NCBI GenBank assembly: GCA_031701365.1
Contig: GCA_031701365.1_4118.1
Reading direction: 5' to 3' (one strand)
DNA: 64,000 nt
DNA from: Escherichia coli
GTDB taxonomy: Bacteria > Pseudomonadota > Gammaproteobacteria > Enterobacterales > Enterobacteriaceae
Positions 4,164 through 56,601 of the stretch are shown piece after piece. The notes under the pieces were generated by a model. It had not been told where the DNA came from. It made no database searches and was given only the letters and a program-made list of their open reading frames with translations. The position numbers and the translations under genes were made by a program. Positions within the stretch are counted from its first letter, which is position 1. Every line of letters starts with the position of its first letter.

Positions 4164-4193
4164 ATGATTGATATTATTTTCAAGGGAGTCCCT

Positions 4194-7392: not shown

Positions 7393-7642
7393 TTTAAGTA
7401 AAGATGAATATACCGAGCGTATGACAAAAAATACTCTTAAACGTAATACAATCTATCACAACCCAGAAATTCAACACAGTAAGAAAATGATTATGATACG
7501 TGAGTTAAAGATGGGTGTATTCTTAGGAACAAACTATCAAGAGATGGAAGTAAATCGCTTAATCGCGGAGTTACTAATGGAAATCAAAGGTAAGCTGTAC
7601 TTTTATCAAATGACCCGTCCACTAAGGTGTACTGATCGATGA
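7379..7642 (+). CDS. family A small protein 16
   Basis: LGTNYQEMEV; start 7379 (MKMINLSKDEY) by analogy with the junction at 7147. Confidence 0.6.
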   Translation: MKMINLSKDEYTERMTKNTLKRNTIYHNPEIQHSKKMIMIRELKMGVFLGTNYQEMEVNRLIAELLMEIKGKLYFYQMTRPLRCTDR

Positions 7643-7881
7643 ATATTGTGAATAACATCAGATTAGCAGAAAGATTTGATAGAATTGGGGAAGCACTGAG
7701 AAGATACGATAAAGAATATGGTCATTTGAGCTTTTCTATAGAAAAGAGATATGAACTTGAAGCAGAGTTTAAAATGCAGAGTCTCTTAGGCACACAGTAT
7801 CAAAACCAATATATTCAAACTTGGATTGATTGTTTAATCCAGACAATTTACGTAAGGAACATTAAATGCAAAATGAAATGA
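7639..7881 (+). CDS. family A small protein 17
   Basis: LGTQYQNQYI. Confidence 0.6.
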   Translation: MNIVNNIRLAERFDRIGEALRRYDKEYGHLSFSIEKRYELEAEFKMQSLLGTQYQNQYIQTWIDCLIQTIYVRNIKCKMK

Positions 7882-8111
7882 TATACTTAACATATAATGA
7901 ATACGTCGAGAGATTAGTTAGTGCCAAGAGATATACAAATCAACTTCCTCACAACCCAAACCAAACCCCAGAGGAAAAGAATGCGGAAGCTCTATTCCAA
8001 GCACTACCATACCTTCTTGGAACTGATAGGCAGGAGTATCACGTTGAACGTATAATTAAATCTCTTAAAATCACTATTAAGGAAAAGATACATGAAGCAC
8101 TTGACAGATGA
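7866..8111 (+). CDS. family A small protein 18
   Basis: LGTDRQEYHV. Confidence 0.6.
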   Translation: MQNEMIYLTYNEYVERLVSAKRYTNQLPHNPNQTPEEKNAEALFQALPYLLGTDRQEYHVERIIKSLKITIKEKIHEALDR

Positions 8112-8322
8112 TGAACATGGGCTTATAGTAATGGATGTAATCAACATCGAATACAAAAAGTTGATACGCTACCGTTGTTATGAAGATAAGCAACTAGTTC
8201 TAGCAGAACAGAAGTTGTTTCGACTCTTAAACACAAACTACCAAGCACAATACGAAGAATCGTATATGTACCTTTTGGCGAGGAAAGCAAAAAGAGATTA
8301 TGAAAATTTTAAGCAAAGGTGA
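8092..8322 (+). CDS. family A small protein 19
   Basis: LNTNYQAQYE. Confidence 0.6.
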   Translation: MKHLTDDEHGLIVMDVINIEYKKLIRYRCYEDKQLVLAEQKLFRLLNTNYQAQYEESYMYLLARKAKRDYENFKQR

Positions 8323-8521
8323 TTCAGTAATATTACTTATAGAGAGTTCAAGTAAATTCTTAAACATAACACTGTCTGATATAGATGAAGATGATAAAGA
8401 AGTACTGAGAGCAGATTTAAGAGTACTGTTGCATCTCGGAACAAACCTACAAGAAGAATATGTAGAGTACTACATTGATGAACTTAAAGAATCAGTACTG
8501 AGAAGATGCAAATGCGAATGA
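8300..8521 (+). CDS. family A small protein 20
   Basis: LGTNLQEEYV. Confidence 0.6.
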   Translation: MKILSKGDSVILLIESSSKFLNITLSDIDEDDKEVLRADLRVLLHLGTNLQEEYVEYYIDELKESVLRRCKCE

Positions 8522-8733
8522 TTACCGACGAAGAATACCTAACAATTATAAATGGATTGTTTTTGAAGTTGTTTGTTATTAACACATCAGATATACCAGA
8601 TATGGATAAAATTATTAAGAGAAATGAAATCTATGTTCTAGCTACCCTGGGAACTAACTATCAAGAATACGATATTAATGATTATATTAATACACTTAAA
8701 CGAGCGATTGAACTAAAATGCCAAAACCACTAG
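8506..8733 (+). CDS. family A small protein 21
   Basis: LGTNYQEYDI. Confidence 0.6.
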   Translation: MQMRMITDEEYLTIINGLFLKLFVINTSDIPDMDKIIKRNEIYVLATLGTNYQEYDINDYINTLKRAIELKCQNH

Positions 8734-8933
8734 GAACAGCAGAATACATTGAACTCATGGGATTACACTTCTCATCCTTTCAGAAACTTATGCGAGAATC
8801 AAAGAATGATTTAGAATATACCATCAGAGGTTCAGATTTAAGAATGCTTCTCACCCTAGACACAGATTCCCAAGAGCGTTTTGTCAATGAGCACATTAGA
8901 GCACTTTTAATGGAAATTAAAAGTAAACTATGA
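8718..8933 (+). CDS. family A small protein 22
   Basis: LDTDSQERFV..IKSKL. Confidence 0.6.
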   Translation: MPKPLGTAEYIELMGLHFSSFQKLMRESKNDLEYTIRGSDLRMLLTLDTDSQERFVNEHIRALLMEIKSKL

Positions 8934-9145
8934 AGATAATATCAAATCAAGAGTACTTGGCACTATTCAGAAAGAATAATCACAAATTTATGGCACTTGA
9001 TTCAAGAACTGATATAAGTGAACTTGAAAAAAATCTTTTGCGTTCAGAGATGATAGTACTGACACTCTTAGGAACACAGCATCAAGAAAGAACTGTTAAT
9101 TCACACATAGAAATACTTAAGAAGCTTATACAGGAAAAGTTATGA
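8930..9145 (+). CDS. family A small protein 23
   Basis: LGTQHQERTV. Confidence 0.6.
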   Translation: MKIISNQEYLALFRKNNHKFMALDSRTDISELEKNLLRSEMIVLTLLGTQHQERTVNSHIEILKKLIQEKL

Positions 9146-9363
9146 GAATCATAACACAACAAGATATTCTTAAGTTCACAAGGGTTCATGCATCTGAATT
9201 TGATGCTATATTATCAAAAAGTTACAACAACCCTTATACAGAAGATGTACACTACAATGAATTATGGATGTATATACTTTTAGGTACAGATCATCAAGAG
9301 CAAGCCGTACAGAGGTATTTGAGTGCTTTAAGTACTGCTACTGCTAATGGAGTATGTGTTTAA
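9142..9363 (+). CDS. family A small protein 24
   Basis: LGTDHQEQAV. Confidence 0.6.
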   Translation: MRIITQQDILKFTRVHASEFDAILSKSYNNPYTEDVHYNELWMYILLGTDHQEQAVQRYLSALSTATANGVCV

Positions 9364-9364
9364 T

Positions 9365-9607
9365 ATGAAAGTACTGACAGAATTAGAAATGTATCATAGA
9401 TTTAATAAGTACTATCATTTACTTAAACCTATACAGAGGATTAAGTGTCCCTTTGTAGTGAAACAGGTATTAATTTATGAGCATAAGTTATTTGTATCAT
9501 TAGGTACGAATGAACAAGAGTATTATTTGAAGTTGTACTTGATTACATTAATAGATTTAATTCACTATAAAACCAAACAAGCTAATAAAGAGAAATATGA
9601 AAACTAA
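9365..9607 (+). CDS. family A small protein 25
   Basis: LGTNEQEYYL; start ATG 9365 (MKVLTEL). Confidence 0.55.
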   Translation: MKVLTELEMYHRFNKYYHLLKPIQRIKCPFVVKQVLIYEHKLFVSLGTNEQEYYLKLYLITLIDLIHYKTKQANKEKYEN

Positions 9608-9941
9608 TATACAACTCAAGGTATATAAATCATTTGAACATACATATATCAAAAGTAGTCTATGTAGAGATGTAATGGATTACAAGGGTAAGCCATTCAC
9701 AATTACCTATGATTCTTATGTTAGTGATTTATATATATCATTTGTTAATTACGAAAATAAAATATACAAGCACGTTGATATTAAAGATTTAAGTACTTTA
9801 TCACCAGAGGAATACTTTCAGGAATCATTAGTATGGGATTTAGAGTTCCCTATGCCATTAGTACATAAGATGATAGTACTAATGAAAGAATCTAAACAGG
9901 AGCCTAATAGTGGTTATGAAGAACACATTATTGAGTATTAA
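9597..9941 (+). CDS. family B protein 1
   Basis: C-terminal EEYFQESLVWD. Confidence 0.6.
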   Translation: MKTNIQLKVYKSFEHTYIKSSLCRDVMDYKGKPFTITYDSYVSDLYISFVNYENKIYKHVDIKDLSTLSPEEYFQESLVWDLEFPMPLVHKMIVLMKESKQEPNSGYEEHIIEY

Positions 9942-9973
9942 GAGTTCTGATAGTACTGAGAGTACAAATGTTC

Positions 9974-10002
9974 TTGACAGTACTTTTCATTACTGATATA
10001 GT
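9974..10002 (+). promoter_or_regulatory. sigma70-like promoter
   Basis: -35 TTGACA 9974-9979, 17-bp spacer, -10 TATAGT 9997-10002. Confidence 0.45.
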
Positions 10003-10031
10003 GCACCAACGTTAATCATAGGGTACAGATT

Positions 10032-10277
10032 ATGTTAAAATTTTTAAATTTCCTTATCGTCTTGTGTATTGTTCTTGGAATTGCACCGTTTGTATTAGCG
10101 TATCTGGATTCAGATGAAATGCAGAAGATGAATTGCACAAAGACAGGACAGAGTAGAGAAGAGACGGTTATGATGCCTGTAACGGTTATTGTGAATAACA
10201 TACCAATTACGAACATGATTCCTACCCTAACGACAACGTACCAGTACTCTTGTACAGATGGAGAGAGGTGGAGATGA
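10032..10277 (+). CDS. hypothetical small membrane protein
   Basis: Hydrophobic N-terminal segment FLNFLIVLCIVLGIAPFVLAYL; weak RBS. Confidence 0.4.
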   Translation: MLKFLNFLIVLCIVLGIAPFVLAYLDSDEMQKMNCTKTGQSREETVMMPVTVIVNNIPITNMIPTLTTTYQYSCTDGERWR

Positions 10278-10594
10278 AATTTAATATAGCAAAAACATCT
10301 AATATATGTATATTTGGTTATGCCGAAGAGTTGGGTGATATTGACATTCTTTTGTACAAAAAGGATGGTGTTATGCATTTCAAGTACCAGGATGAAGAGG
10401 CAGACAATTATCCTTTACCTAATTTAGTACAAATGCAGGAAGAGGAATTATTCCAGTACAGCTTAGTATATGACATTGATATTTGCACGATGCCAGTACT
10501 AATTAATATTCAAAAAGTGATGCTCGATGTGTTTGATAGGCTAATACAAGGCACACAAGGAAGAACCATATATGTCAATGTACAAGACAATTAA
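10274..10594 (+). CDS. family B protein 2
   Basis: EELFQYSLVYD; start probably ATG 10274 (MKFNIAK). Confidence 0.6.
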   Translation: MKFNIAKTSNICIFGYAEELGDIDILLYKKDGVMHFKYQDEEADNYPLPNLVQMQEEELFQYSLVYDIDICTMPVLINIQKVMLDVFDRLIQGTQGRTIYVNVQDN

Positions 10595-10787
10595 TCAAGA
10601 ATGGAAGACCCAAAAGTACAGGGAATTCAGTACTAGTTTAACAAAAGATGCATTGAATTTAAAAAGAACAGAGTTTGATATGTTTATTTTTCTTGGAACA
10701 CGTTCCCAGGAACAATACATTCATTATTATATAAGTTCATTGCGAACGGAGATCGTATGCAAAACACAGGGTATTATAAAAAAGTAA
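10572..10787 (+). CDS. family A small protein 26 (displaced copy)
   Basis: LGTRSQEQYI. Confidence 0.55.
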   Translation: MSMYKTINQEWKTQKYREFSTSLTKDALNLKRTEFDMFIFLGTRSQEQYIHYYISSLRTEIVCKTQGIIKK

Positions 10788-11023
10788 ACCAATATTTGTA
10801 CGCTACAAAGTACAGGGATTTTTGTTTAAAGGGTGGTGATGAAGATTTTTCTTTGCGATTATCAGAATTTAATCTGTTATTTTATCTTGGTACATCGGAA
10901 CAAGAAGAAATGGCACAGAAATTTATCAAGCACCTTGAACAAAAAATTCATATGCAAATTTTGATGCTTAAGGTACATAATGAGATAAACAAATATGAAC
11001 CCAACAATAGTACAGGATCTTAA
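10757..11023 (+). CDS. family A small protein 27 (displaced copy)
   Basis: LGTSEQEEMA. Confidence 0.5.
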   Translation: MQNTGYYKKVNQYLYATKYRDFCLKGGDEDFSLRLSEFNLLFYLGTSEQEEMAQKFIKHLEQKIHMQILMLKVHNEINKYEPNNSTGS

Positions 11024-21490: not shown

Positions 21491-21801
21491 AAAACTTATT
21501 CAGTGTTCAGTACGTCCCTGGTGAAATTGGTTTATTATATCTATTTGACCATGATAATTCATTATTACTAGTAGTGAAGAAATGCCAAGCTAGTTCGTTT
21601 GTTGAATACATTCACGATAGTGAATACATTCCTGATTTCCTAGAGTGTGATTATCACGATGAACATGAATCATTTATTTTTCAGGAATCACTAGTATGGG
21701 ATAAATCGATCAACTTCTTTACGTTAATTGAATTACAAAAGCAGGTGAAGTATTATTGGGATTACTTAATTACACAGGATTACATTGAGATTGAAACATA
21801 A
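21487..21801 (+). CDS. family B protein 23
   Basis: ESFIFQESLVWD. Confidence 0.6.
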   Translation: MKNLFSVQYVPGEIGLLYLFDHDNSLLLVVKKCQASSFVEYIHDSEYIPDFLECDYHDEHESFIFQESLVWDKSINFFTLIELQKQVKYYWDYLITQDYIEIET

Positions 21802-22109
21802 TGACAAAAAATGAATTTGATTCACTTTGTACGGTTTATAATTCATTGACAGAAATACCTGACTTTATTAATTACATTTCAGCGTTAAATCATATTATGC
21901 ATAGTTTTGAACAATCGTTTGAAGAGAAATATGCAGGTAGAAAAGTTCTATGTCATATGTCAATGTACTTGGGAGATGGTGAGCCTTACACTACCAGTAC
22001 TACATGTGAAATAAAAAAATATAATATATTATTGGGCACAATAGAATTCACAGTATCCAATGGTGGTAGTTATATGTACTTTAGAGATGGAGTGGTTGAA
22101 TTATTATGA
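21801..22109 (+). CDS. hypothetical small protein (MYLGDGE motif)
   Basis: EEKYAGRKVLCHMSMYLGDGE; related to 2047-2304. Confidence 0.55.
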   Translation: MTKNEFDSLCTVYNSLTEIPDFINYISALNHIMHSFEQSFEEKYAGRKVLCHMSMYLGDGEPYTTSTTCEIKKYNILLGTIEFTVSNGGSYMYFRDGVVELL

Positions 22110-22555: not shown

Positions 22556-23088
22556 TGAAAGTTAACATCAATGACTTTGATGCATTACAAGATTTATCAA
22601 AAAAGATTCGCATAATCGTACCAGTACTCAAAAAATGCAGTACTGGTTTAATTGATCCTAGTACTGTTGTTAATGAGAAGTACAATTTTCATCGTGTATT
22701 ACAGGGTACAGGTGCATTTCAGAAGTGTGATGTACGTGAGAAACACGTAATTGATACATCATTGTTTTCTATTGGTGCACCTGTGTCGAATAATTCTATT
22801 TTCCTGGATAACGCAGGAAATATTCAACAATTAACATTTAAGAAAAGGAAAAAGAACAATAACATTGGTGTGTACGCGATGAAGTGGGGTCAACCTGATT
22901 TGAAGCGTGAAATTCACATCCCTAAGTACAATTACAATGCATTTGACGAACAGTGTTTTCAACTATCGTGTACTGACCCTGACTATGCAATCATTCAGTT
23001 CTATATGGAATTGCAGATAGCATTTAACAGTAATTTATATATTAACTTGTTGGCAATGAACATCGATGAAGTATTCAAAAACATTTAA
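22552..23088 (+). CDS. family B protein 25
   Basis: DEQCFQLSCTDP. Confidence 0.55.
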   Translation: MMKVNINDFDALQDLSKKIRIIVPVLKKCSTGLIDPSTVVNEKYNFHRVLQGTGAFQKCDVREKHVIDTSLFSIGAPVSNNSIFLDNAGNIQQLTFKKRKKNNNIGVYAMKWGQPDLKREIHIPKYNYNAFDEQCFQLSCTDPDYAIIQFYMELQIAFNSNLYINLLAMNIDEVFKNI

Positions 23089-23284
23089 TCGAATTGAATA
23101 CATGAGAACTGTGAGTGCAGTGTGGGATATATGGTTCACTACTAAACCAAAAATGGATTACCATGACTTTAAGCTCTTGTTCTTCGTTGGCTCTAACAAA
23201 CAGGATGTTGCAATGAAGGGTTATATTCAGCACTTACAGGAACTAATTCAGAAGAGGGTTAATGAAAATAATAGACCAAGATGA
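23066..23284 (+). CDS. family A small protein 28 (displaced copy)
   Basis: VGSNKQDVAM. Confidence 0.5.
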   Translation: MKYSKTFNRIEYMRTVSAVWDIWFTTKPKMDYHDFKLLFFVGSNKQDVAMKGYIQHLQELIQKRVNENNRPR

Positions 23285-23453
23285 TATTGCTAAACTATTC
23301 AATATATATTCTACTAGAATGATGCAAACCGACTCATATGGTACGGAATTCAAAGAGTTGAAAGTACTGATGTACTTGGGAACCCAATATCAGGAACAAG
23401 TTATTTTGGAATATATTAATTCGTTGAAGAAGGATATCCGTTATGTACGATGA
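23262..23453 (+). CDS. family A small protein 29 (displaced copy)
   Basis: LGTQYQEQVI. Confidence 0.55.
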   Translation: MKIIDQDDIAKLFNIYSTRMMQTDSYGTEFKELKVLMYLGTQYQEQVILEYINSLKKDIRYVR

Positions 23454-41015: not shown

Positions 41016-41629
41016 ATCCTGAAAGGTTCCCATAAGGAAATGATTAAAAGCCTAATCCACTCGAAAATGTAGAGGGTAGATGAGTAGTCCTTTCAGTACG
41101 AACAGCAGATGAAACCCGTTAGATGATGGCATAGTTTGAACCACTCACGGCAATGCGGCTGTATAAAGAACTCCAATAGGATAAAGAGAGTTCCTCGATA
41201 GACATATAAGGATCGCACCTTACCAATTATCTAAGGGAGATTTCATAAGAAATATGCGGTCGGAATTATACAATATAGTTGCGTCCAAATTTTGTGAAAT
41301 CAAATACAAGTACTGGTCATATGGTATTTGTATTATGTGTCGGGATGTTTAAGACCGACGACCGTTGCTACAAGAACCGCGATAGAGAGAAACAGAGCAA
41401 CCCGCTTTCGTCTCGTAAGAGAATTCGTGATATGAACTATGTGAAGGCCACCAGCGTCAAATTTTTTTGTTCTTTCCCCTGCGGGGGGATGAAATATGCT
41501 CAAGCAAACCCCGTCAATATTAATTAAAAGAAAATAGTACTTGTAGAATTAAACATGCGTAGCATGATAATTCTACTGATGTTGATGCAATCAACGTCAC
41601 GTATATTCATTGATGTTTCCATAGGAATA

Positions 41630-42175
41630 ATGATGGCATTTATTAGAAAAGAAAAAACTGTTACTTATAAAACTTTGAATTTTGATGATTGCATTAATCA
41701 ATCACAAGACGAAGATATCTTTACTGGATATGTGGTTATTAAAGAAAAAGGATGCATTTCTTATATAAAGGAATTACAAAATGGAATTGAAGTGACTTCA
41801 GTTAAATTACTTCCTACTCAAAAACCAACAATATCAAAAGCCCAGTATGGTAATTATTTTGAAGAAAGATATAGTAATAATTCAATAAGTGTTAAGGCTC
41901 ATATTATTAAAGGAGAACTAGAAGGAGAATATAGAAAATACAACCCACAAGGAAAATGTGTTTGGGTTAAATACTTCAATTCAGGATATGATGTAACATC
42001 TGAAATTATAGAATTCTTGGGTTTAAAATGTACCCCTGAGACTATTCATGATTACAAGTTCAATACTGAAGAAGAGTTTAATCTGATGATGCGTTACGGT
42101 TCACATTTTAAATTTTTATATGAATATAACATTGACAGTAGTACTTTTGATAAGATAGTACACAACTGTCTCTAA
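41630..42175 (+). CDS. hypothetical protein, possibly MORN-repeat-like
   Basis: ORF 41555-42175, start ATG 41630 after AGGA; repeats such as GEYRKYNPQGKCVWVKYFNSG. Confidence 0.45.
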   Translation: MMAFIRKEKTVTYKTLNFDDCINQSQDEDIFTGYVVIKEKGCISYIKELQNGIEVTSVKLLPTQKPTISKAQYGNYFEERYSNNSISVKAHIIKGELEGEYRKYNPQGKCVWVKYFNSGYDVTSEIIEFLGLKCTPETIHDYKFNTEEEFNLMMRYGSHFKFLYEYNIDSSTFDKIVHNCL

Positions 42176-44460: not shown

Positions 44461-44736
44461 ATGAATTATAAAGTTCTACAATATACATACAGTGTTTTGT
44501 TTGATTTACATCACAATGGAAGATATCTCAATACAATACGAGAAAACACATTCACTCATACTATCTGGATTAATCACTTAATAATGATACGTGAATATTT
44601 TGTTAATAGTGAGATAATCATTCGTGGTAAAAAACATAAGATAGAACAAGTTAATAGTTTTGGTGGTAAATTAGTACTATCATTTATAGATAGTAATACT
44701 AATGAAAGATATAGTATAGATTTGGTGGACATATGA
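44461..44736 (+). CDS. family C small protein 1
   Basis: N-terminal YKVLQYTYSVLFDL. Confidence 0.6.
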   Translation: MNYKVLQYTYSVLFDLHHNGRYLNTIRENTFTHTIWINHLIMIREYFVNSEIIIRGKKHKIEQVNSFGGKLVLSFIDSNTNERYSIDLVDI

Positions 44737-44999
44737 ATTATAAAGATTTCCTACTAACATACAAGATTATTCGAGATTTAGCACACGACAATGATAGCCC
44801 TAGTCTAGAAGACACATGCACTGAAATGATTCATACGATTCGTGGTAAGATTAAAAAAAAATTCAGTACTGTTATTATTGGTGATGACCATGCAGAATTT
44901 TCTGATATAATCATTAGACGTGATGGTAAAGTTGAGGTTCAGTACTACACTGATTTTGGATTTACCAGTATTCCGTTGGAGATATTCCCTTGGGATTAA
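44733..44999 (+). CDS. family C small protein 2
   Basis: YKDFLLTYKIIRDL. Confidence 0.6.
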   Translation: MNYKDFLLTYKIIRDLAHDNDSPSLEDTCTEMIHTIRGKIKKKFSTVIIGDDHAEFSDIIIRRDGKVEVQYYTDFGFTSIPLEIFPWD

Positions 45000-45301
45000 A
45001 TTTAAATGATATACAATTCACTTATAAGATCCTATATGATTTGTATGATGTATACCTTGTTAGTAACAAAATAGGTTCACATAACCCATACAAAGAACAA
45101 CCATTTATTGATTTATATATTGAGTACTTAGATTCAGTAGGTGAATATATAAAAAAGAATTACAGTACTTTTATCGACGGAAATGATATATTCGAGTTCT
45201 CTGGAGTTAAATCATACAATGGGATTATCCATGTTGAATTTCTTGAAATAACCGATAGGGGATTTATCGAGATTAAAGTTGTGAAGTTGGTGAATTTATA
45301 A
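44990..45301 (+). CDS. family C small protein 3
   Basis: LNDIQFTYKILYDLYD; start uncertain (track implies non-ATG start). Confidence 0.5.
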   Translation: MGLNLNDIQFTYKILYDLYDVYLVSNKIGSHNPYKEQPFIDLYIEYLDSVGEYIKKNYSTFIDGNDIFEFSGVKSYNGIIHVEFLEITDRGFIEIKVVKLVNL

Positions 45302-45311
45302 GAGGTTACAT

Positions 45312-45623
45312 ATGTTATTAAATGATATACAATTCACATACAAATTTTTGTATATCCAATACGCTACGGTTGATGCTGGAGAATATCTCTACGGTGAAAT
45401 CTATCGTTCGGTATGGATAAAGTTTTTGGATGAATTACATGAATATTACCATGATTTGTGTATAGTTCGTGATAATAAAATATACAAATTCCGCGATATT
45501 GTTAGTCATAGCGGTAAGCTACGATTGGAATTAAGTACTGATAGTGATGTTGATTGGATTGGTGTAAATTTACTGGAGTTGGAGAATGAAAAACAACTTA
45601 AAGGAAATACAAGTATTTTATAA
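45312..45623 (+). CDS. family C small protein 4
   Basis: MLLNDIQFTYKFLY. Confidence 0.6.
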   Translation: MLLNDIQFTYKFLYIQYATVDAGEYLYGEIYRSVWIKFLDELHEYYHDLCIVRDNKIYKFRDIVSHSGKLRLELSTDSDVDWIGVNLLELENEKQLKGNTSIL

Positions 45624-45870
45624 ATTCTTATACTTGTCATATGTAAAAGATGAGTACTATGAAAGTGTGTATTATTTTTTATGGCAACATTACCGTACTA
45701 TAGTAAGAGATTTATATATAGGAAAATCTATCATATCCAATGGTGAAAGATGTATATGTACTGATGTTGTTAGTTTTAATGGTTCTTTAACACTGTGTTT
45801 CAGATGCGATAATAATAGTGGGTCATTTTCATTAAACGTATATCAGTTAGAAGGAATAAATTTTGAATAA
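45586..45870 (+). CDS. family C small protein 5
   Basis: LKEIQVFYKFLYLSY. Confidence 0.55.
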   Translation: MKNNLKEIQVFYKFLYLSYVKDEYYESVYYFLWQHYRTIVRDLYIGKSIISNGERCICTDVVSFNGSLTLCFRCDNNSGSFSLNVYQLEGINFE

Positions 45871-47050: not shown

Positions 47051-47108
47051 TCTAATTCATGATATAATAATGGGTAAGGAACAATAATTAACACAAGGAG
47101 TGTGTGAA

Positions 47109-47837
47109 ATGCTTGACCGTATCCGTTTCGCTACAGAGATGGCGAATGAATTAAACATGGCAAATTTCCAAATGTTAACATCAGTAATGGCTGAACATGC
47201 ATGTGCTTATTCTGTAAGTGGTGTGCAGTGTGGTCAGGAGAATATGTTAGCAGATGTTTATAGTGAAGTACAAAGTAAGCAATATAGTGTAAAGACATAT
47301 AAGGATAAGTTTGTTAGTCTTTATATGAACGAAGATATTGCCGAAGACCGCAAATTCACTGATTTTATTATTGAACGCCGAGTATCAGGTGTATCTAATC
47401 CTAATGCATCAAGCGATGAAGTTTTTGCAGAAGTACTGAAAGATATATACGAAAATGAATTAAAAAGTAAGAATCATTACAATGTACGTGAAACTAACAC
47501 AGTGCTCTTGGGATATGATGAAGACGAAGAATACTATTATTTTCGTATGACTGAAGTTCCTTTTGAATACAAATCTCCATATACAACTACAGTGAAAGAA
47601 TTTACTGAAAAAAGTAAAAACTTTATGAAGCATGAAGGAAATCGTTGTAGTATAAATGGTTATGACGAAAATGGCATTCACATTTATGAATGGGTTCACC
47701 CAAATTGTCAGACATACACTCGTTGCTTGAAAAAACGTTATAATTTAGAAGAGCATGAATCATTCTATTTTAAAGTTAAGAAGCAAGGTTATACTCGCCC
47801 CGCCGATTCTGAATTGATGGGTATGATATATTTCTAA
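47109..47837 (+). CDS. hypothetical protein
   Basis: ORF 47100-47837, start ATG 47109 after AAGGAG. Confidence 0.65.
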   Translation: MLDRIRFATEMANELNMANFQMLTSVMAEHACAYSVSGVQCGQENMLADVYSEVQSKQYSVKTYKDKFVSLYMNEDIAEDRKFTDFIIERRVSGVSNPNASSDEVFAEVLKDIYENELKSKNHYNVRETNTVLLGYDEDEEYYYFRMTEVPFEYKSPYTTTVKEFTEKSKNFMKHEGNRCSINGYDENGIHIYEWVHPNCQTYTRCLKKRYNLEEHESFYFKVKKQGYTRPADSELMGMIYF

Positions 47838-48129: not shown

Positions 48130-48136
48130 ATTTTTA

Positions 48137-48161
48137 GGCCAGCGTTTGCTGGTCTTTTTTC
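48137..48161 (+). terminator. rho-independent terminator
   Basis: GGCCAGC-gttt-GCTGGTC followed by TTTTTT. Confidence 0.7.
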
Positions 48162-48173
48162 GCAGGTACAAAG

Positions 48174-48476
48174 ATGTTCAGTATAGATTTAATTAACAGT
48201 ACTATCAAAATGTTGGCAGATTTGGTGAGACAATCCAATGGAACTTTATATTCTGCAATGTATAAAATGTTTGACCGATATATCAAGGATTGTAACATAT
48301 CATTATATGGACTTGCTGTTGATATAGACGATTACTATGGAATTAATACTTCATATAAAACAGGAATTTTAATTGGTATTAATATAAAGATGGGGTATTT
48401 CCCTTATTACTGTATAGGATTACCAGATAATACTTTGGTAGAATATCCAGCCAGTACTATAAAAATAAGAGGATAA
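48174..48476 (+). CDS. hypothetical protein
   Basis: ORF only. Confidence 0.55.
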   Translation: MFSIDLINSTIKMLADLVRQSNGTLYSAMYKMFDRYIKDCNISLYGLAVDIDDYYGINTSYKTGILIGINIKMGYFPYYCIGLPDNTLVEYPASTIKIRG

Positions 48477-48483
48477 AACTAAA

Positions 48484-49062
48484 ATGAATGTATTAGAATT
48501 AAGTACTAAGCTGATTACTATGCGTAACGAGTGGTACGATTGGTTTTATAATGGTACTGATATGGATTTTTCAAAATATCCATTTATGGAATCAGGATGT
48601 GATGCAAGATACCGCTGGTTGAGCAAAGATTGTTCTGGTTTACATATTCTAGTTGACGATAGTGGTCAGGGAATTATAAAAGATTTACTTCAAGTTGAAC
48701 AACTCGTCCATGATAATTGGTGTGATAACGATCCATACCTTGGAAATATGATTTATGTAAGTGAAGATGATTGCATATTCGTTATCCAGCGTCATGGTAA
48801 TTCTATGTTTTATGTAGCAGACAGCAGTACTCCAGAAGGTGCAGCAGCCGATGGTCTTATGCCTAAGATTGATATATTGGAATTTGGATTACCTGAGCAC
48901 TTCCAGATTAGTACTTTATACGATATTCCACCACTTGAGTTCTTTGAAGAATTTAAATTGTACTACAATGATCTTCAAAAATTGAGTACTGAGAGTCGCC
49001 TTGAAATAACCGTCAAGTACATGGACGGAACGAAATTAACCGATACGGGGATAGAATTTTGA
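48484..49062 (+). CDS. hypothetical protein with family B-like motif
   Basis: EHFQISTLYD. Confidence 0.6.
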   Translation: MNVLELSTKLITMRNEWYDWFYNGTDMDFSKYPFMESGCDARYRWLSKDCSGLHILVDDSGQGIIKDLLQVEQLVHDNWCDNDPYLGNMIYVSEDDCIFVIQRHGNSMFYVADSSTPEGAAADGLMPKIDILEFGLPEHFQISTLYDIPPLEFFEEFKLYYNDLQKLSTESRLEITVKYMDGTKLTDTGIEF

Positions 49063-49748
49063 TTAAAGATTTAGATAGAATTTTATATGTACTAAGGGGT
49101 GTAATTACATTACATCCACAAATCAATCGAATTGAAAGTACATTTCAGTTGGAGTCAAGAGAAACTCCATATTCACATATATCAAATGTAGTTGGTTCAC
49201 TCAGTACTGAAGACTCGTCTTACGATATTTGTGTATGTGAAGTTCAACCAAGTTCGGATCTTGGATTTGCTATTTTTGATAAAGAACAAAATCTCATTAG
49301 TATGTTTCAGTGCAATAATCCTTTTTGGAAAACATGCCTGTATCCAGAGTGGGCTATGCTTGATCCAACCAAGAGTACCATTAAAGTTTATGACTCTAAA
49401 AATGATGAAGTCGCTATTGATTTGGATGAGTCAATGTCAGAGGAAGAACACTTTCAGCTAATGATGATGCGTGCTATGCCTGAGTACAATGCAATGATTA
49501 ACACTGTGCAATACATTAAGGATACTATGCCATCATTGCGTACACATGAGTTTTGTCATCCTGTATTGTATGAACATTTGGATTTAGATTTCAGTACTAT
49601 TAAATTCAAAGATAGTATTATAAAATATATTCAAGAAAATGTTAAATTTAATTTCATTAGTACTATGAACAATAATCCAAAAACGAATTTTAGGCATCAG
49701 TACAATGAATCTTTTTCTAATGGTCGTGATACCAGTTGGTGGAAATAA
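49059..49748 (+). CDS. hypothetical protein with family B-like motif
   Basis: EEEHFQLMMMRA. Confidence 0.55.
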   Translation: MIKDLDRILYVLRGVITLHPQINRIESTFQLESRETPYSHISNVVGSLSTEDSSYDICVCEVQPSSDLGFAIFDKEQNLISMFQCNNPFWKTCLYPEWAMLDPTKSTIKVYDSKNDEVAIDLDESMSEEEHFQLMMMRAMPEYNAMINTVQYIKDTMPSLRTHEFCHPVLYEHLDLDFSTIKFKDSIIKYIQENVKFNFISTMNNNPKTNFRHQYNESFSNGRDTSWWK

Positions 49749-49749
49749 C

Positions 49750-50013
49750 ATGAATATCCAAGATAGATTACAATTACTGTACACACTTGAACAGGCTGCT
49801 TTTGAACTTGTTCGAAAAATATCAGATGAACTACCTAAAGGAACTAAAGTTCGTGTACGTGAGATGAATTATTTTTCTGGAGTAATTGAAGAACAAGTAC
49901 TAACAGTGAATAAAGTAACATACTATGAATCTGAGTTGTCTATTCAGTGTGAATCGGATGATGGATTAATATCATATTATGGAACTGATGTAGATATAGA
50001 GGTAATAAAATGA
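49750..50013 (+). CDS. family D-like small protein
   Basis: ORF 49705-50013, start ATG 49750; SDELPKGTKVRV. Confidence 0.5.
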   Translation: MNIQDRLQLLYTLEQAAFELVRKISDELPKGTKVRVREMNYFSGVIEEQVLTVNKVTYYESELSIQCESDDGLISYYGTDVDIEVIK

Positions 50014-51152
50014 CCCTTTTACAAATATATGAAGATTTAATGCACTTATGTAATACAAACGATGCATTCTTTTATGTGGATCATAAAAGTCCTGCTGGTG
50101 GCACGTATCGTGTATTCAGTTATCGCCTAGCATCATACACTGATTTCATGCAACCAAATGCGTTGGAAACCCGTGGCTCTATGTGGGAAATTGATGAAGA
50201 AGGTGACATGATACGTTGTGCAGCACGTACAATGAAAAAGTTCTTCAATGCTTACGAGAATCCTGCTACAATGTTCCCTGCTAACACCACATGCGATGAC
50301 ATTGCGGTCGTGATGCCTAAGTTGGATGGTTCGATTATCAGTACTTATCGTGATAATGATGGTGAGATTCGTTGTAAATCACATACTGCATTGTATTCTG
50401 ACCATGCGATTAACAGTACTCGACTTATTAACGAGAACCAGAATTTGTATCAGTACATCGACGAAGCGGAACGTTTAGGTTACACAGTTAATATGGAGTA
50501 TACAAGCCCAGAGTACCGAATTGTATTACCATATCAGGTAGAACAACTGTTTGTACTGAACGTTCGACATCGTGTGAGTGGTGAGTTGCTATGTGGTAAA
50601 GCACTACGTGATAAGTTTCCATGTCTTGCACAGTACAGTACTAATATGACCGGAAAAGATATTCATCACACTTTTCCGGTACGAAATACCTTCCGTGAAA
50701 GCGTGGAGGAAGTTCATAAAATGCTTGATATTGAGGGTTTTGTGTGCATCCTAAATAATGGGACAATGTGTAAAATAAAAACTGACTGGTACAGTTCATT
50801 ACATCTTACAAAAGATAGTATTATTATTGATTCTCATTTATATGAAGCCGTATTAAATGGTTCAAGTGATGATTTAAAACAATTGTTCAGTACTGATGAA
50901 TATGCTATGCAAAAGATATTAAGAATGGAACATTTGGTATTTTCGTGCTATAATGCATTACAAGATGAAGTAGAAAGCTTCGTCAAGGAACACAAGCACT
51001 TGGAGCGAAAGGAATTCGCAATGAAGGTTCAGGAGTGTTTAACTAATGAACTGAATCGTCAGGGCTTGGCCTTTGCAATGTATAACAATAAGAAAGTTGA
51101 TTACAAAGAGACTCTTATAAAATACATGAAAATTGTACTAAAGGATTTTTAG
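50010..51152 (+). CDS. rnlA: RNA ligase 1 (T4 Rnl1 homolog)
   Basis: Recalled alignment to T4 Rnl1 over N-terminal region (FFY..D, GxxYRxFSY, ALExRG, MPKLDGS), including lysine-nucleotidyltransferase KxDG motif. Confidence 0.9.
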   Translation: MTLLQIYEDLMHLCNTNDAFFYVDHKSPAGGTYRVFSYRLASYTDFMQPNALETRGSMWEIDEEGDMIRCAARTMKKFFNAYENPATMFPANTTCDDIAVVMPKLDGSIISTYRDNDGEIRCKSHTALYSDHAINSTRLINENQNLYQYIDEAERLGYTVNMEYTSPEYRIVLPYQVEQLFVLNVRHRVSGELLCGKALRDKFPCLAQYSTNMTGKDIHHTFPVRNTFRESVEEVHKMLDIEGFVCILNNGTMCKIKTDWYSSLHLTKDSIIIDSHLYEAVLNGSSDDLKQLFSTDEYAMQKILRMEHLVFSCYNALQDEVESFVKEHKHLERKEFAMKVQECLTNELNRQGLAFAMYNNKKVDYKETLIKYMKIVLKDF

Positions 51153-51182
51153 TACTATCTAGCCTAAGCACAAGGAGAAGTG

Positions 51183-51437
51183 ATGGCTAAACCTAAGTAT
51201 AAAAATGACGGTTCCCTTTCTCCGACTGAGTTCAGGAAAATACAAGAAGAAATCGATGAATTACAGCACAAACGCTCAATGAAAGGTGTGAAGATAAGTA
51301 AGAAACGAATCGAGAATACCTTCGGATGTAGTAGTACTGAATACAAGAAGAAAAGGAAACCAAAAGGTGTTAAGCCGAGAATACATGATGTAACTCGCTA
51401 TACATCGAAACGTGAAAATAAATTTGATCCACTATAA
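51183..51437 (+). CDS. hypothetical basic protein
   Basis: ORF 51180-51437, ATG 51183 after AAGGAG; Lys/Arg-rich. Confidence 0.55.
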   Translation: MAKPKYKNDGSLSPTEFRKIQEEIDELQHKRSMKGVKISKKRIENTFGCSSTEYKKKRKPKGVKPRIHDVTRYTSKRENKFDPL

Positions 51438-51446
51438 GGAGTTCAT

Positions 51447-51677
51447 ATGAAAGTTGAAGTTCAGCATAGTATTGTTCAGGATATGTCAGTAGTTAAATTT
51501 CTTTCTCTGAAAGATTACTTCAGATGTATCAAGTTCCTAGAAGAATCTCAATTACAGTGGACCCCATTAAAGTACAGTTCATCCAATGATACAGCTAGTA
51601 TTCGTTGTGATGAATCTGTACTTGTGAAAATCTCCAAACGATTTGGAGTAGGAAAAGTTAATGAGCACAGTAAGTGA
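51447..51677 (+). CDS. hypothetical small protein
   Basis: ORF with AAGGAG RBS. Confidence 0.55.
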   Translation: MKVEVQHSIVQDMSVVKFLSLKDYFRCIKFLEESQLQWTPLKYSSSNDTASIRCDESVLVKISKRFGVGKVNEHSK

Positions 51678-51915
51678 CCTAAAATACTACAACAAAACTG
51701 CGGATACGTTTATTACTCATTTATATGAAGAATTTAGTCGTATCCGTAAGGAATATACAGGTAAATGTATTTTATATAGTTCTTATCATAGTGGTGGAAT
51801 TGAAAGTGCTTACATTACTAAAGTGAAGTTTTCTGATGACTATCAATTACTCTTTGAATTAGATGATTGTTTCGTTATTGAAGCTTGTTTGATAGTGGAT
51901 GTTCTAGATAATTGA
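51661..51915 (+). CDS. family D-like small protein
   Basis: RKEYTGKCILY. Confidence 0.5.
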   Translation: MSTVSDLKYYNKTADTFITHLYEEFSRIRKEYTGKCILYSSYHSGGIESAYITKVKFSDDYQLLFELDDCFVIEACLIVDVLDN

Positions 51916-51921
51916 GGACAT

Positions 51922-52236
51922 ATGAATAAAGAACTTGCATTTGAGAGGATCGAAAAGTTAAAGTACATTGAAAAGGAACTAATAGAATCTGTCGAATCAA
52001 TGGTCGAAGATTACGTTTTCGATTTTAAGAAAACATTGATTGGATGTAAAGTTAAATGCTGGGATCATACAATCAGAGAATGGTTCAGTACTATAATTCT
52101 TGATGTTAAAGTATCGCGTACTGCTATTGGTAATTTAGTAAATGGTGAATGCTTTGTATACACTGAATACAATAACGGAACAAGAAACCTTTCAAGAGGA
52201 TGGCACAAACTCGAAGATGTAGAATTCATTGAGTAA
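51922..52236 (+). CDS. family D-like small protein
   Basis: KKTLIGCKVKCW. Confidence 0.5.
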   Translation: MNKELAFERIEKLKYIEKELIESVESMVEDYVFDFKKTLIGCKVKCWDHTIREWFSTIILDVKVSRTAIGNLVNGECFVYTEYNNGTRNLSRGWHKLEDVEFIE

Positions 52237-52248
52237 CAAGGAGTAATA

Positions 52249-53181
52249 ATGCCAACTATTACACTAACAGTTGGATTACCTGGGTGTGGAAAAACCACAT
52301 GGGCAGTTCAAGAAATTAAAAATGCCAAATCGAAGACTATCAACATTAACCGTGATGACATTCGAGAATCAATGGCAGGGTCACATGATGCATACAAATT
52401 CAACGACGCTAATGAGCAGTACGTAACTAAAATGCAGTTCAGTGCAGCAAATTCAGCAGCAGAGAATGGTTGGAACATCATTGTGTCCGATACGAACCTT
52501 AAACAACATTTCCGTGATGAATGGAAACGTTGGGCTAAAGATAATGAATACGACTACAAAGAAAAGAACTTCTACGAAGATTTTGTACCGAATGAAGATC
52601 GTGGTGCAGATGTTCATGTTTTCTTTAAGATTAAAGAGTTCGTAAAACTTTGTAAGAAACGTAACCTCATGCGTGAGCGTTCAGTACAAGATAATATCAT
52701 TGACACTATGGCAGATACGTACTATTATAGTAAGGCCATGCACATTGGTTACTATGGTAATTCACGAGAAGCTGCTATCATCGTTGATATCGATGGAACT
52801 CTTGCTCATAAATGGGGGCGTAACCCGTTCGATGAAAGTACTGTTCTTCAGGATACACCTGATGAAGAAGTTATTTTGTCTATTATCGCTGAAGCAGTTT
52901 TTCATAAACGCAAGATTATCGTCATGAGTGGGCGTACTGAAGGGTGTCGTGCTGATACCGAACAGTGGCTTAAGAATTGGGGTGTTCCTTACGATGCATT
53001 GTTTATGCGAGATATCGATGATAAACGTCCTGATGATGTTGTAAAATTCGACCTGTACATGAAAAATGTGGTTGATCATTACGATGTTAAAAAGGTATAT
53101 GATGACCGAGCACAAGTCGTATTCATGTGGCGTAAGCTACTTGGCTTGAAAGTTTTTCAAGTTGCAGAAGGAAATTTCTAA
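52249..53181 (+). CDS. pseT: polynucleotide 5-prime kinase / 3-prime phosphatase (T4 Pnk homolog)
   Basis: P-loop GLPGCGKTTWA and INRDD kinase motifs; HAD phosphatase DIDGTLA motif; C-terminal WQVAxGxF as in T4 Pnk. Confidence 0.9.
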   Translation: MPTITLTVGLPGCGKTTWAVQEIKNAKSKTININRDDIRESMAGSHDAYKFNDANEQYVTKMQFSAANSAAENGWNIIVSDTNLKQHFRDEWKRWAKDNEYDYKEKNFYEDFVPNEDRGADVHVFFKIKEFVKLCKKRNLMRERSVQDNIIDTMADTYYYSKAMHIGYYGNSREAAIIVDIDGTLAHKWGRNPFDESTVLQDTPDEEVILSIIAEAVFHKRKIIVMSGRTEGCRADTEQWLKNWGVPYDALFMRDIDDKRPDDVVKFDLYMKNVVDHYDVKKVYDDRAQVVFMWRKLLGLKVFQVAEGNF

Positions 53182-53186
53182 TACAA

Positions 53187-53218
53187 AAGGGATCATATGT
53201 TGGTCCCTTTTTCTTTTA
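53187..53218 (+). terminator. rho-independent terminator
   Basis: AAGGGATCA-tatgt-TGGTCCCTT followed by TTTCTTTT. Confidence 0.65.
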
Positions 53219-53406: not shown

Positions 53407-53667
53407 ATGGATAAATTTCACACAGATATAACACAGATAGGTAATCTTATCAATAGTCTAATTACTGATTTAGAAGAAAAGTATTTAGGTCGAAATGTAT
53501 ACGTAGAAATGTATGAAACATATGGTGTTATTGATATGATTTATTACAGTGCATTGAAGTGTGAAATACGTTTAACAGTATGTTTGTTTGAAAAAAATAC
53601 ATTCAACAGAAGTACTGCAATTCGCCAAGTTGGAGTTGATGATATAGAATTATACGAGGAACAATGA
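53407..53667 (+). CDS. family D-like small protein
   Basis: DLEEKYLGRNVYV. Confidence 0.55.
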   Translation: MDKFHTDITQIGNLINSLITDLEEKYLGRNVYVEMYETYGVIDMIYYSALKCEIRLTVCLFEKNTFNRSTAIRQVGVDDIELYEEQ

Positions 53668-53918
53668 TGTTTGAGCAGGACTTAGAGATATTCAAAAGTC
53701 ATATTGATTACTTGACTATATTAGAAAATGATTTAACTACAAAGTACAAAGGTATTCGTGTTCTGTGCTGGTATGATGATTGGGATTATAAACGTGAACT
53801 CACTATTGATCGAATTTATTTCAGTGACGGTGTACTAAATGTACATGGTGTAAATGATTTTGGTCATTCATATACATATTCTAATAATGCTAAATTTAAA
53901 AGGATCTACAATGAATGA
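53664..53918 (+). CDS. family D-like small protein
   Basis: DLTTKYKGIRVLC. Confidence 0.55.
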   Translation: MMFEQDLEIFKSHIDYLTILENDLTTKYKGIRVLCWYDDWDYKRELTIDRIYFSDGVLNVHGVNDFGHSYTYSNNAKFKRIYNE

Positions 53919-54869: not shown

Positions 54870-55196
54870 GTGAATGGTTCGTTTTTAACAATTTTAGAAA
54901 AGACATCCGAGATGCTTTCTAGTTCGTTAATGCACATTTTCAGTACTAATAATTTATACAATACCCAGGTGTTAGATTCAATTAGTAATAACTATGTGGT
55001 AAGTATATCTGATGAAATATGTCCATTTAATGCGTATACGAATTATAGTGTAGAAGAGTTTCATATATCCGAGATTCGATGTGGTTTTGGTGCTTGGTTA
55101 GTTCTAAATGAACGTTCAGGGACGTCTTTATACATCGAAGAAATTGATAAATTTATATACAAAGGAGTAGAATATGTTAACCCCAATCATTCTTAG
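54870..55196 (+). CDS. hypothetical protein
   Basis: ORF; start uncertain. Confidence 0.45.
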   Translation: MNGSFLTILEKTSEMLSSSLMHIFSTNNLYNTQVLDSISNNYVVSISDEICPFNAYTNYSVEEFHISEIRCGFGAWLVLNERSGTSLYIEEIDKFIYKGVEYVNPNHS

Positions 55197-55803
55197 CAGT
55201 GCATATGTAATCGGTATTATTATTTCTGGTATGCTTGCATATAACTATAACAGAAGTGTTATAGGTTATGTAGTACTTGGTACAGTACTAAGTCCAGTGA
55301 TTGCTATTGGTCTTCTTGTTATGCTAGGTGAGAAAAATACAAGCTTCTTTATTACTAAAGAACTTGATAAAATCACCCCAGCACCAGAAACAGTTATTCC
55401 AGAAGTTAAAGAAGAAGTTAAAGAAGTTGAAGTTCAAATGCAAGTTAAAGTGTATAATACACTTGAAGAAACTGACCCTAAAGTTGTAGTGAATGTAGTT
55501 CCAGTCGTTGAAGAGGTGAAACCAAAAGCTCCTAAAGTACAGAAAAATACTAAAACTGCAAAGAAAGCTCGTTACACTAAAGGTAAGAACAAAGGTAAAT
55601 CTAAGGATGAACCACAACTAGGTGTTCATGACCATACTGCACAAATTGCAACGGCAGCGACCGCAGCAGCAATCGTAACATCACCAATCTACAACAATGA
55701 TGATTACAGTGATTATAGCCGTCACAGCAGTTCTTCCTCTGATTCTTGTTCCTATGATAGCTCTAGTTCTGATTCAAGTTCATCTTCTGGAAGTTGTGAT
55801 TAA
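55174..55803 (+). CDS. membrane protein with charged repeat region and Ser/Asp-rich tail
   Basis: Two N-terminal hydrophobic helices, KEEVKEV/KPKAPK charged segment, C-terminal SSSSSDSCSYDSSSSDSSSSSGSCD. Confidence 0.6.
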   Translation: MLTPIILSSAYVIGIIISGMLAYNYNRSVIGYVVLGTVLSPVIAIGLLVMLGEKNTSFFITKELDKITPAPETVIPEVKEEVKEVEVQMQVKVYNTLEETDPKVVVNVVPVVEEVKPKAPKVQKNTKTAKKARYTKGKNKGKSKDEPQLGVHDHTAQIATAATAAAIVTSPIYNNDDYSDYSRHSSSSSDSCSYDSSSSDSSSSSGSCD

Positions 55804-56134: not shown

Positions 56135-56350
56135 ATGATAACATTTTTCGCAATATATGGATTTGTAGCATTTGTTACATTTATAACCAACTTTCTAGTA
56201 CTTAATTGGGGTTGTTTTAAAGATGAAATCATGATTATCATGAATCTCCAAACAGCAGCACTGATGGCTATTATTTGGCCTGTAACGTTAGTATATATTT
56301 TTATTTCACTTACCCAAGATATTATTAACAAATATAAGAGAAAGAAATAA
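56135..56350 (+). CDS. small membrane protein
   Basis: Two hydrophobic segments (FFAIYGFVAFVTFITNFLVL, ALMAIIWPVTLVYIFI). Confidence 0.55.
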   Translation: MITFFAIYGFVAFVTFITNFLVLNWGCFKDEIMIIMNLQTAALMAIIWPVTLVYIFISLTQDIINKYKRKK

Positions 56351-56601
56351 TGTTCAACAACGACTTATCACATTTGCGATATCTTATGTCTTTGGCTGAT
56401 GATTTTATAAATGATCTGAAGCCAAAATATATTGGTCAAGAAGTACGATTAATAAACTCCAGAGGGTATGGAAAATATATTATTACTGATATGTATATTA
56501 GTGGTGGTGAATGGCGTTTTAAAATTAATACTTATCTTAAAGATGGTTCTTTTGCTGGAACACAAGTTACTAAACACACTAATATTATATGGTTGGAGTA
56601 A
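56350..56601 (+). CDS. family D-like small protein
   Basis: DLKPKYIGQEVRL. Confidence 0.55.
   Translation: MFNNDLSHLRYLMSLADDFINDLKPKYIGQEVRLINSRGYGKYIITDMYISGGEWRFKINTYLKDGSFAGTQVTKHTNIIWLE

Follow-up and report, generated by a model that had tools for sequence, protein, structure and literature searches.

The closest described counterpart of the locus analysed here is the rnlA (gene 63)/pseT pair of phage T4, with which it has both protein families and their domain architectures in common. The T4 genes run rnlA-alc-pseT.3-pseT.2-pseT.1-pseT, with four small genes between the enzymes, and order and strand are as in our window. Within jumbo phages, the cassette is orthologous to that of RaK2 (gp464, rnlA; gp470, pseT; 64% identity for each enzyme), with homologues in CBB, GAP32, Serratia BF and K64-1. 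Bacterial Pnkp/Hen1 and Pnkp1-Rnl-Hen1 complexes follow the same healing-and-sealing logic, and Pnkp1 (PDB 4xrp) matches the kinase of the window at 1e-31; these complexes differ in their added Hen1 methyltransferase, in a ligase of a different clade and in forming a defined hetero-oligomer, whereas the window is without Hen1. Published papers have already read the RaK2 pair as tRNA repair, and CBB_83 likewise; the GenBank annotation of coliphage 121Q names both rnl1 and pnk, and the genes are also annotated in PBECO4 and relatives. Since the pair has been annotated and its tRNA-repair reading published for this phage group, the finding itself is not new.

The window, the whole 64,000-nucleotide stretch that was analysed, is 99% identical to 121Q (Asteriusvirus), a jumbo E. 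coli phage. An earlier note on this DNA had placed genes for RNA ligase 1 and polynucleotide kinase about 1 kb apart at 50010-53181, and both do lie there, on the same strand and 1,096 bp from each other. The three small ORFs counted between them are in fact four in 51183-52236, corresponding to 121Q gp439-442; the close relative PBECO4 has three. The features are as follows.

47100-47837: upstream ORF, 245 aa, with a homologue upstream of the cassette in RaK2 too
50010..51152, + strand: rnl1, predicted Rnl1-family RNA ligase, 380 aa (Pfam, PHROG, NCBIfam and PDB matches)
51183..51437, + strand: s1, 84 aa, very basic (pI 10.1; 24 Lys+Arg), phrog_15306, directly after rnl1 and conserved in RaK2-like jumbo phages
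51447..51677, + strand: s2, 76 aa, phrog_14730, small alpha/beta fold
51661..51915, + strand: s3, 84 aa, acidic, lineage-specific; absent from PBECO4 and 33% identical to its A4 counterpart
51922..52236, + strand: s4, 104 aa, phrog_31355; 34-38% identical to its PBECO4 and A4 counterparts, with flanking genes at 83-100%
51665..52248, no strand: sharply bounded swappable slot, from DNA comparison with PBECO4 and A4
52249..53181, + strand: pnk, predicted bifunctional polynucleotide 5'-kinase/3'-phosphatase (Pnkp), 310 aa (Pfam, PHROG and PDB matches)
53185..53217, + strand: terminator-like hairpin followed by a T-run (11 bp stem, -14.4 kcal/mol, z = -3.2), 4 nt past the pnk stop codon

Searches of Pfam, PHROG and PDB, and of NCBIfam for the ligase, place the two enzymes in the Rnl1 and Pnkp families rather than in unrelated ones. 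The product of 50010-51152, which is 99.7% identical to 121Q gp438, is by its sequence a T4 Rnl1-family RNA ligase: it matches RNA_lig_T4_1 (9e-16) and T4_Rnl1_C (9e-17), passes the curated Pfam thresholds (PF09511, 58.8 bits against a cut-off of 28.3; PF20819, 61.9 bits against 27) and that of the NCBIfam equivalog TIGR02308 (292.3 bits; cut-off 242.25), and matches PHROG 562 at 5e-109 and T4 Rnl1 itself (PDB 2c5u) at 2e-56. The protein has the Rnl1-specific subdomain at its N terminus and the T4_Rnl1_C domain at its C terminus. The product of 52249-53181 is, on the same kind of evidence, a T4 Pnkp-type 5'-kinase/3'-phosphatase, matching AAA_33 together with HAD_PNKP (3e-43; PF25109, 147.6 bits), PHROG 505 (2e-96) and T4 Pnkp (PDB 1ltq; 3e-38).

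Identity to the T4 enzymes is 36-39% for Rnl1 and 34-38% for Pnkp, and each protein has residues inserted relative to its T4 counterpart: about 16-18 aa in the nucleotidyltransferase domain of Rnl1 (residues about 200-222) and about 20 aa in the kinase domain of Pnkp (about 103-128). The catalytic residues agree with those of T4, with one exception in Rnl1 motif Ia. Motif I of the ligase, K104-L-D106-G107, aligns to T4 K99-E-D-G102 and is invariant both in 73 and in 151 sequences; R55, K77 and F79 of the N-terminal subdomain correspond to T4 R54, K75 and F77, and E163, E242-G243, K255 and K257 of motifs III, IV and V to T4 E159, E227-G228, K240 and K242, with all eleven of these residues invariant in 73 phage homologues. 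In Pnkp, the kinase domain carries the P-loop G9-P-G-C-G-K15-T16 with D36 (at the general-base position), R39 and R142, and the HAD phosphatase domain carries D180-I-D182-G-T184 with R191, R229, D262, D285 and D286, these phosphatase residues being invariant in 62 homologues. The T4 equivalents of K15, D36, R39, R142, D180 and D182 are K15, D35, R38, R126, D165 and D167, and those of R191, R229, D262, D285 and D286 are R176, R213, D254, D277 and D278. An apparent loss of Pnkp R122/R126 proved to be a one-residue slip in pairwise and MAFFT alignments; a profile alignment keeps K-R-N-x-x-R. The pair is genuine and, by appearance, intact.

The closeness of rnl1 and pnk is not chance. Among 79 Rnl1-bearing phage loci, 66 have pnk downstream on the same strand, 0.1-4.3 kb away, so the linkage is inherited; it goes back to an ancestor and is found in almost all T4-like and RaK2-like phages. 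Both enzymes keep 55-64% identity in RaK2, Serratia BF and SE_PL, where nearly all the adjoining small ORFs are missing, a pattern that points to purifying selection on the pair. That the genes are neighbours only incidentally, with Pnkp processing DNA ends and Rnl1 serving some unrelated pathway elsewhere, is disfavoured and scarcely credible: T4 Pnkp does act on DNA ends too in vitro, but same-strand linkage extends over very divergent phages, and in one lineage, represented by P0093, rnl1 and pnk directly overlap.

Taken as a unit, the cassette is probably the form that the T4 RNA healing-and-sealing pathway takes in the RaK2/121Q clade, and the family assignments and T4 analogy drawn earlier from the sequence are correct, nearly all catalytic residues being kept. 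The HAD domain of Pnkp, with Asp180 as nucleophile, would remove the 2',3'-cyclic or 3'-phosphate left at a break and the P-loop kinase domain would phosphorylate the 5'-OH; Rnl1, adenylylated on Lys104, would then transfer its AMP onto the 5'-phosphate and reseal the RNA, its C-terminal domain presumably steering it to tRNA anticodon loops. The likely role of the pair would be to undo tRNA cuts made by PrrC-type host anticodon nucleases.

The window has no recognisable RNA-repair gene besides the pair; RlaP was sought and not found. The two genes might instead serve RNA end repair or processing in general, as a housekeeping cassette that large myoviruses have inherited, acting on any toxin-cut RNA or on phage RNAs and uninformative about current defences. 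The near-universal ancestral linkage would suit this, as would the window itself, where no tRNA genes were found over the 64 kb, nor other tRNA functions. It is nonetheless improbable, for the only function shown in vivo for the T4 pair in the literature is repair of tRNA-Lys on prr+ hosts, and the window ligase has kept the C-terminal domain that in T4 Rnl1 confers specificity for anticodon-loop breaks (PMC6379707). It is reasonable to suppose, as the earlier note did, that this phage may face tRNA-cleaving host defences; the linkage, being inherited and common to T4 and most T4-like and RaK2-like phages, says little specific about its present hosts.

The exception among the known T4 catalytic residues lies in motif Ia of Rnl1, which reads S124-H125 where T4 has S-K, Lys119 of T4 being replaced by His125. 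Lys119 was reportedly found by Wang and colleagues in 2003 to be essential, and is said to be implicated in RNA adenylylation (step 2). In an alignment of 150 representatives with the window and T4 (151 counted, one having a gap), the column holds Lys in 144, Arg in four and His in three, namely the window, P0091 and P0093; every RaK2-like relative carries this fixed His, which is rare elsewhere. T4 Rnl1 (gp63) also has a function outside catalysis, in attaching tail fibres, and one may ask whether the substitution alters or cripples the ligase, with the protein kept for a function of that kind or for a modified mechanism or substrate. The rarity of the His lends this some weight, as does the mechanistic importance of the basic side chain, which contacts the ATP beta-gamma phosphate and is the likely place where the RNA 5'-phosphate binds (PMC6379707). 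It is still very unlikely. All remaining Rnl1 catalytic residues are invariant across the clade at just 59-64% overall identity, which would be unexpected were catalysis dispensable; His can still give a hydrogen bond or charge to a phosphate; the conserved Lys123 (T4 K117) remains beside it; and the co-conserved Pnkp is fully intact. With this substitution in motif Ia, chemistry identical to that of T4 cannot be assumed.

The small genes between the enzymes had been put forward as candidates for accessory roles, which is plausible for s1 and s2 and does not extend to s3 and s4. All four are unrelated to T4 alc, pseT.3, pseT.2 and pseT.1 (no homology by BLASTP or phmmer --max), and PADLOC and NCBIfam scans returned nothing for the ORFs of this interval. 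In RaK2-like phages, s1 and s2 invariably sit between rnl1 and pnk, with s2 in that place in 12 of 12 contexts examined; both are absent from 76 IMG/VR loci of T4-like phages. The s2 structure model is confident, with a beta-beta-alpha-beta-beta-alpha arrangement. Apart from rnl1 and pnk, s1, s2 and one nuclease-like upstream ORF are the only genes of the neighbourhood kept across genera. RaK2-type cassettes and the window have in common a K-S-H motif, s1/s2 homologues between the enzymes and the 245-aa upstream ORF; they differ in the number of intervening small ORFs (five in RaK2, three in BF, two annotated plus an unannotated s2 in SE_PL, four in the window) and in their identities.

Both s1 and s2 are conserved passengers of the repair cassette. 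That they are dedicated, hitherto unrecognised subunits or specificity factors of RaK2-like RNA repair, such as an RNA/tRNA-binding adaptor with a bridging domain that assembles Rnl1 and Pnkp, or a host-nuclease shield, is a more doubtful proposal, though one with some chance of being right. The idea that they compensate for the absent motif Ia lysine is weakened by the P0093 lineage, which has K-S-H without s1/s2. By contrast with s1 and s2, the genes s3 and s4 form a cargo that can be exchanged. In comparison with PBECO4 and A4, DNA homology ends at 51664 and restarts at 52248/52249, at the pnk start codon, and the three phages have three different gene contents in the slot. Membership of s3 and s4 in a dispersed paralogous family was also considered and set aside, the profile matches to 21801, 53407, 53664 and 56350 being marginal and not significant (E 0.01-0.09).

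The genes form one tightly packed same-strand block ending in the terminator-like hairpin, and are therefore probably co-expressed. All have Shine-Dalgarno sequences, their junctions are short or overlapping, and stable hairpins lie at the block boundaries, with no terminator-like hairpin between rnl1 and pnk. Transcription probably ends at the hairpin after pnk; conservation with A4 continues across it as far as 53219. A sigma-70 scan found 48 promoters against 48.9 expected in shuffled sequence, and no promoter is claimed. Upstream of rnl1, the neighbour is not denA, unlike in T4. The 245-aa ORF had no Pfam match at E <= 1, and its AF2 model (pLDDT 92) matches PD-(D/E)xK restriction endonucleases; its candidacy as the nucleotidyltransferase RlaP (PF10127) was rejected on that fold, there being no PF10127 match or Pol-beta fold.

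Defenses that target tRNA have turned out to be widespread, PrrC, RloC, PARIS, Retron-Eco7 and Cas13 among them. It is therefore of some practical use, when phages are picked by host range, to know in which jumbo phages the repair pathway is intact. The exchangeable slot with sharp bounds adjoining pnk is a modest by-product for specialists. The clade-wide His in place of an essential motif Ia Lys offers a natural test of the part this residue plays in step 2 of ligation. Always wedged between ligase and kinase in RaK2-like phages, s1 and s2 stand first among candidate partners of the two repair enzymes; if they do prove to be repair subunits, they would, with the clade-specific His, set this pathway apart as a variant of its own beside that of T4.

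Database searches bear out the RNA ligase 1 and polynucleotide kinase pair that the earlier note had proposed, returning the Rnl1 and Pnkp families rather than unrelated ones; the small ORFs between the two genes, counted there as three, number four (s1 to s4, in gene order).

50010-51152, + strand: rnl1, 380 aa, Rnl1-family RNA ligase
51183-51437, + strand: s1, small ORF directly after rnl1
51447-51677, + strand: s2, small ORF between s1 and s3
51661-51915, + strand: s3, small lineage-specific ORF
51922-52236, + strand: s4, small lineage-specific ORF, last before pnk
52249-53181, + strand: pnk, 310 aa, polynucleotide kinase/phosphatase

With the rnl1 product, Pfam RNA_lig_T4_1 and T4_Rnl1_C both exceed their gathering scores, the NCBIfam equivalog TIGR02308 (“T4 RnlA family RNA ligase”) scores 292 bits (cut-off 242), PHROG 562 (“RNA ligase and tail fiber protein attachment catalyst”) matches at 5e-109, and solved T4 Rnl1 structures match at 2e-56. 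The pnk product matches Pfam AAA_33 and HAD_PNKP (3e-43), PHROG 505 (“polynucleotide kinase,” 2e-96), and the solved T4 Pnkp structure (3e-38).

The comparison of catalytic residues with T4 suggested in the earlier note was favorable for both enzymes, with one departure in the ligase. Residues essential in T4 Rnl1 and Pnkp are reportedly those listed in mutational studies from the Shuman laboratory. Thirteen catalytic residues of T4 Rnl1 are identical in the window protein (Y37, R54, K75, F77, K99, D101, G102, E159, E227, G228, K240, K242, and Y246, corresponding to Y38, R55, K77, F79, K104, D106, G107, E163, E242, G243, K255, K257, and Y261), and these columns are invariant across 73 phage homologues. 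The sole exception is catalytic motif Ia, where T4 S118-K119 becomes S124-H125 in an alignment that is gap-free, anchored on both sides, and reproduced by a profile built without the window sequence. When the best 150 cluster representatives from 1.84 billion proteins were aligned with the window and T4 proteins, this column held Lys 144 times, Arg four times, and His three times (the window itself, one relative at 61% identity, and one lineage at 43%). The His is common to the window, PBECO4, A4, RaK2, Serratia BF, Salmonella SE_PL, and six metagenomic relatives. It might be taken to signal that His125 alters or impairs the ligase, which would then be retained for a different function, tail-fiber attachment for example; we consider this improbable. 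Because the remaining catalytic residues do not vary across the His clade, whose overall identity is only 59-64%, His125 is probably a variant that is tolerated or adaptive rather than a sign of decay.

In Pnkp, K15, D36, R39, D180, D182, T184, R191, S227, R229, D262, K266, D285, and D286 (window numbering) are conserved relative to T4, with a conservative Thr at the T4 S16 position. Profile alignment also pairs window K-R138-N-L-M-R142 with T4 K-R122-N-S-K-R126, so that R122 and R126 are conserved as well.

Linkage of ligase and kinase is an inherited family trait and not peculiar to this phage. Of the 79 Rnl1-bearing loci examined (121Q, T4, PBECO4, and 76 from IMG/VR), 66 encode a Pnkp homologue on the same strand, ~0.1-4.3 kb farther downstream; in RaK2, BF, A4, and SE_PL, rnl1 is followed by two to five small ORFs and then pnk. 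That the two genes lie together incidentally is therefore very improbable. In a distant metagenomic lineage (Rnl1 43% identical, with the His-bearing K-S-H motif), rnl1 and pnk directly overlap, and the adjoining genes encode NAD-salvage enzymes (NAPRTase and PRPP synthetase), a thymidine kinase, and a PLD-like nuclease. T4 likewise places four small genes between ligase and kinase on one strand (rnlA, alc, pseT.3, pseT.2, pseT.1, pseT), and no resemblance of s1 to s4 to alc or pseT.1-3 was found.

Two stable hairpins with T-runs, probably intrinsic terminators, flank a block of 11 genes, rnl1 and pnk among them.

48136-48155, + strand: hairpin with T-run, -12.9 kcal/mol, z = -4.1
53185-53211, + strand: hairpin with T-run, -14.4 kcal/mol, z = -3.2, 4 nt past the pnk stop codon

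Every gene is preceded by a Shine-Dalgarno sequence, junctions are short or overlapping, and the rnl1-s1 interval is free of hairpins; this would fit a single transcription unit from ~48174 to 53181. A sigma-70 promoter scan gave no more matches than in shuffled sequence.

The earlier note had also seen candidates for accessory roles in the intervening genes. For s3 and s4, such a role in repair is unlikely because their region is a discrete exchangeable slot with lineage-specific cargo.

51665-52248: exchangeable slot between s2 and pnk, delimited by DNA homology breakpoints

Homology to PBECO4 and A4 ends at 51664 and returns at 52248/52249, the pnk start codon. Breakpoints fall exactly at gene boundaries, and three different sets of genes occupy the slot: s3 and s4 in 121Q and the window, a single 103-aa gene 34% identical to s4 in PBECO4 (flanks 97.5% and 94.6% identical to the window), and two genes in A4, 33% identical to s3 and 38% to s4.

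Iterated profile search recovered a dispersed family of 83-102-aa ORFs on the + strand (21801-22109, 53407-53667, 53664-53918, and 56350-56601), to which s3 and s4 show marginal matches only (E 0.01-0.09). Paralogous families of 28, 33, and 5 ORFs together make up roughly a third of the window. The first, found by all-against-all phmmer, is a head-to-tail + strand array of small ORFs (~65-95 aa; 4164-11023 and 23066-23453) whose 121Q members are all annotated “hypothetical”; the second comprises mostly contiguous + strand ORFs of ~100-200 aa (9597-31838 and 41555-42175), and the third lies at 44461-45870. A 209-aa + strand ORF (55174-55803) has a hydrophobic N-terminus, followed by a middle part rich in Lys, Glu, and Val and a low-complexity tail rich in Ser and Asp.

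Both rnl1 and pnk are under purifying selection and, homologous to the T4 pair, linked, and with active sites intact, quite probably constitute the T4 pathway, the best-supported reading; enzymatic activity, substrate, and a counter-defense role would follow that model. Of the earlier note, the observation is confirmed and the interpretation supported in part. That this phage may face tRNA-targeting host defenses can reasonably be extrapolated from T4. It is unlikely, by comparison, that the pair instead forms a general-purpose RNA repair cassette aimed at no particular defense. Within the 64-kb window there are no tRNA genes and no further recognizable RNA-repair genes.

The module is a textbook example of the T4-type RNA repair pair, carried by a phage already annotated. 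Over 4 kb, its sequence matches Escherichia phage 121Q (Asteriusvirus) at 99.0% identity, and 32 records from related jumbo coliphages and Salmonella phages cover this region at 85-100%. In 121Q, rnl1 corresponds to gp438 (“RNA ligase and tail fiber protein attachment catalyst”), the four small ORFs to gp439-442 (annotated “hypothetical”), and pnk to gp443 (“polynucleotide kinase”). The authors of the RaK2 genome paper call the orthologues “two RNA repair proteins” and suggest a pathway for tRNA repair (PMC3622015), Rnl1 of CBB has been read in the same way (PMC5259590), and a comparison of 224 jumbo phages treats Rnl1, Rnl2, and RtcB ligases with PNK-HAD enzymes as countermeasures to host attacks on tRNA (PMC7824862). 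Given these annotations and publications, the pair and its tRNA-repair reading are already known in the RaK2-like group.

The accessory-gene proposal fares better for s1 and s2, which are conserved across genera at a level rated equal to that of Rnl1 and Pnkp themselves (s1 identity: A4 96%, BF 61%, SE_PL 55%, and RaK2 32%; s2 identity: A4 97%, BF 65%, SE_PL 73%, and RaK2 66%). Within ~9 kb, conservation across genera is confined to a 245-aa ORF (47100-47837) and the genes for Rnl1, s1, s2, and Pnkp. Only 30 s2 clusters turned up among 5.8 billion proteins searched, each at least 62% identical, the named ones all from RaK2-like phages. All 12 contexts examined place s2 between the ligase and kinase genes, with an s1 homologue as the first gene after rnl1; a 324-kb metagenomic contig carries the minimal cassette rnl1-s1-s2-pnk, and some other relatives have ORFs inserted between s1 and s2. 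In SE_PL, the s2 homologue (~5662-5871 of the locus record, 73% identity over 70 aa) falls between gp317 and the kinase gp316, in a stretch unannotated in GenBank where gene calling missed it. It is conceivable, if doubtful, that the repair enzymes of RaK2-like phages have s1 and s2 as dedicated partners, which, if true, would be moderately interesting.
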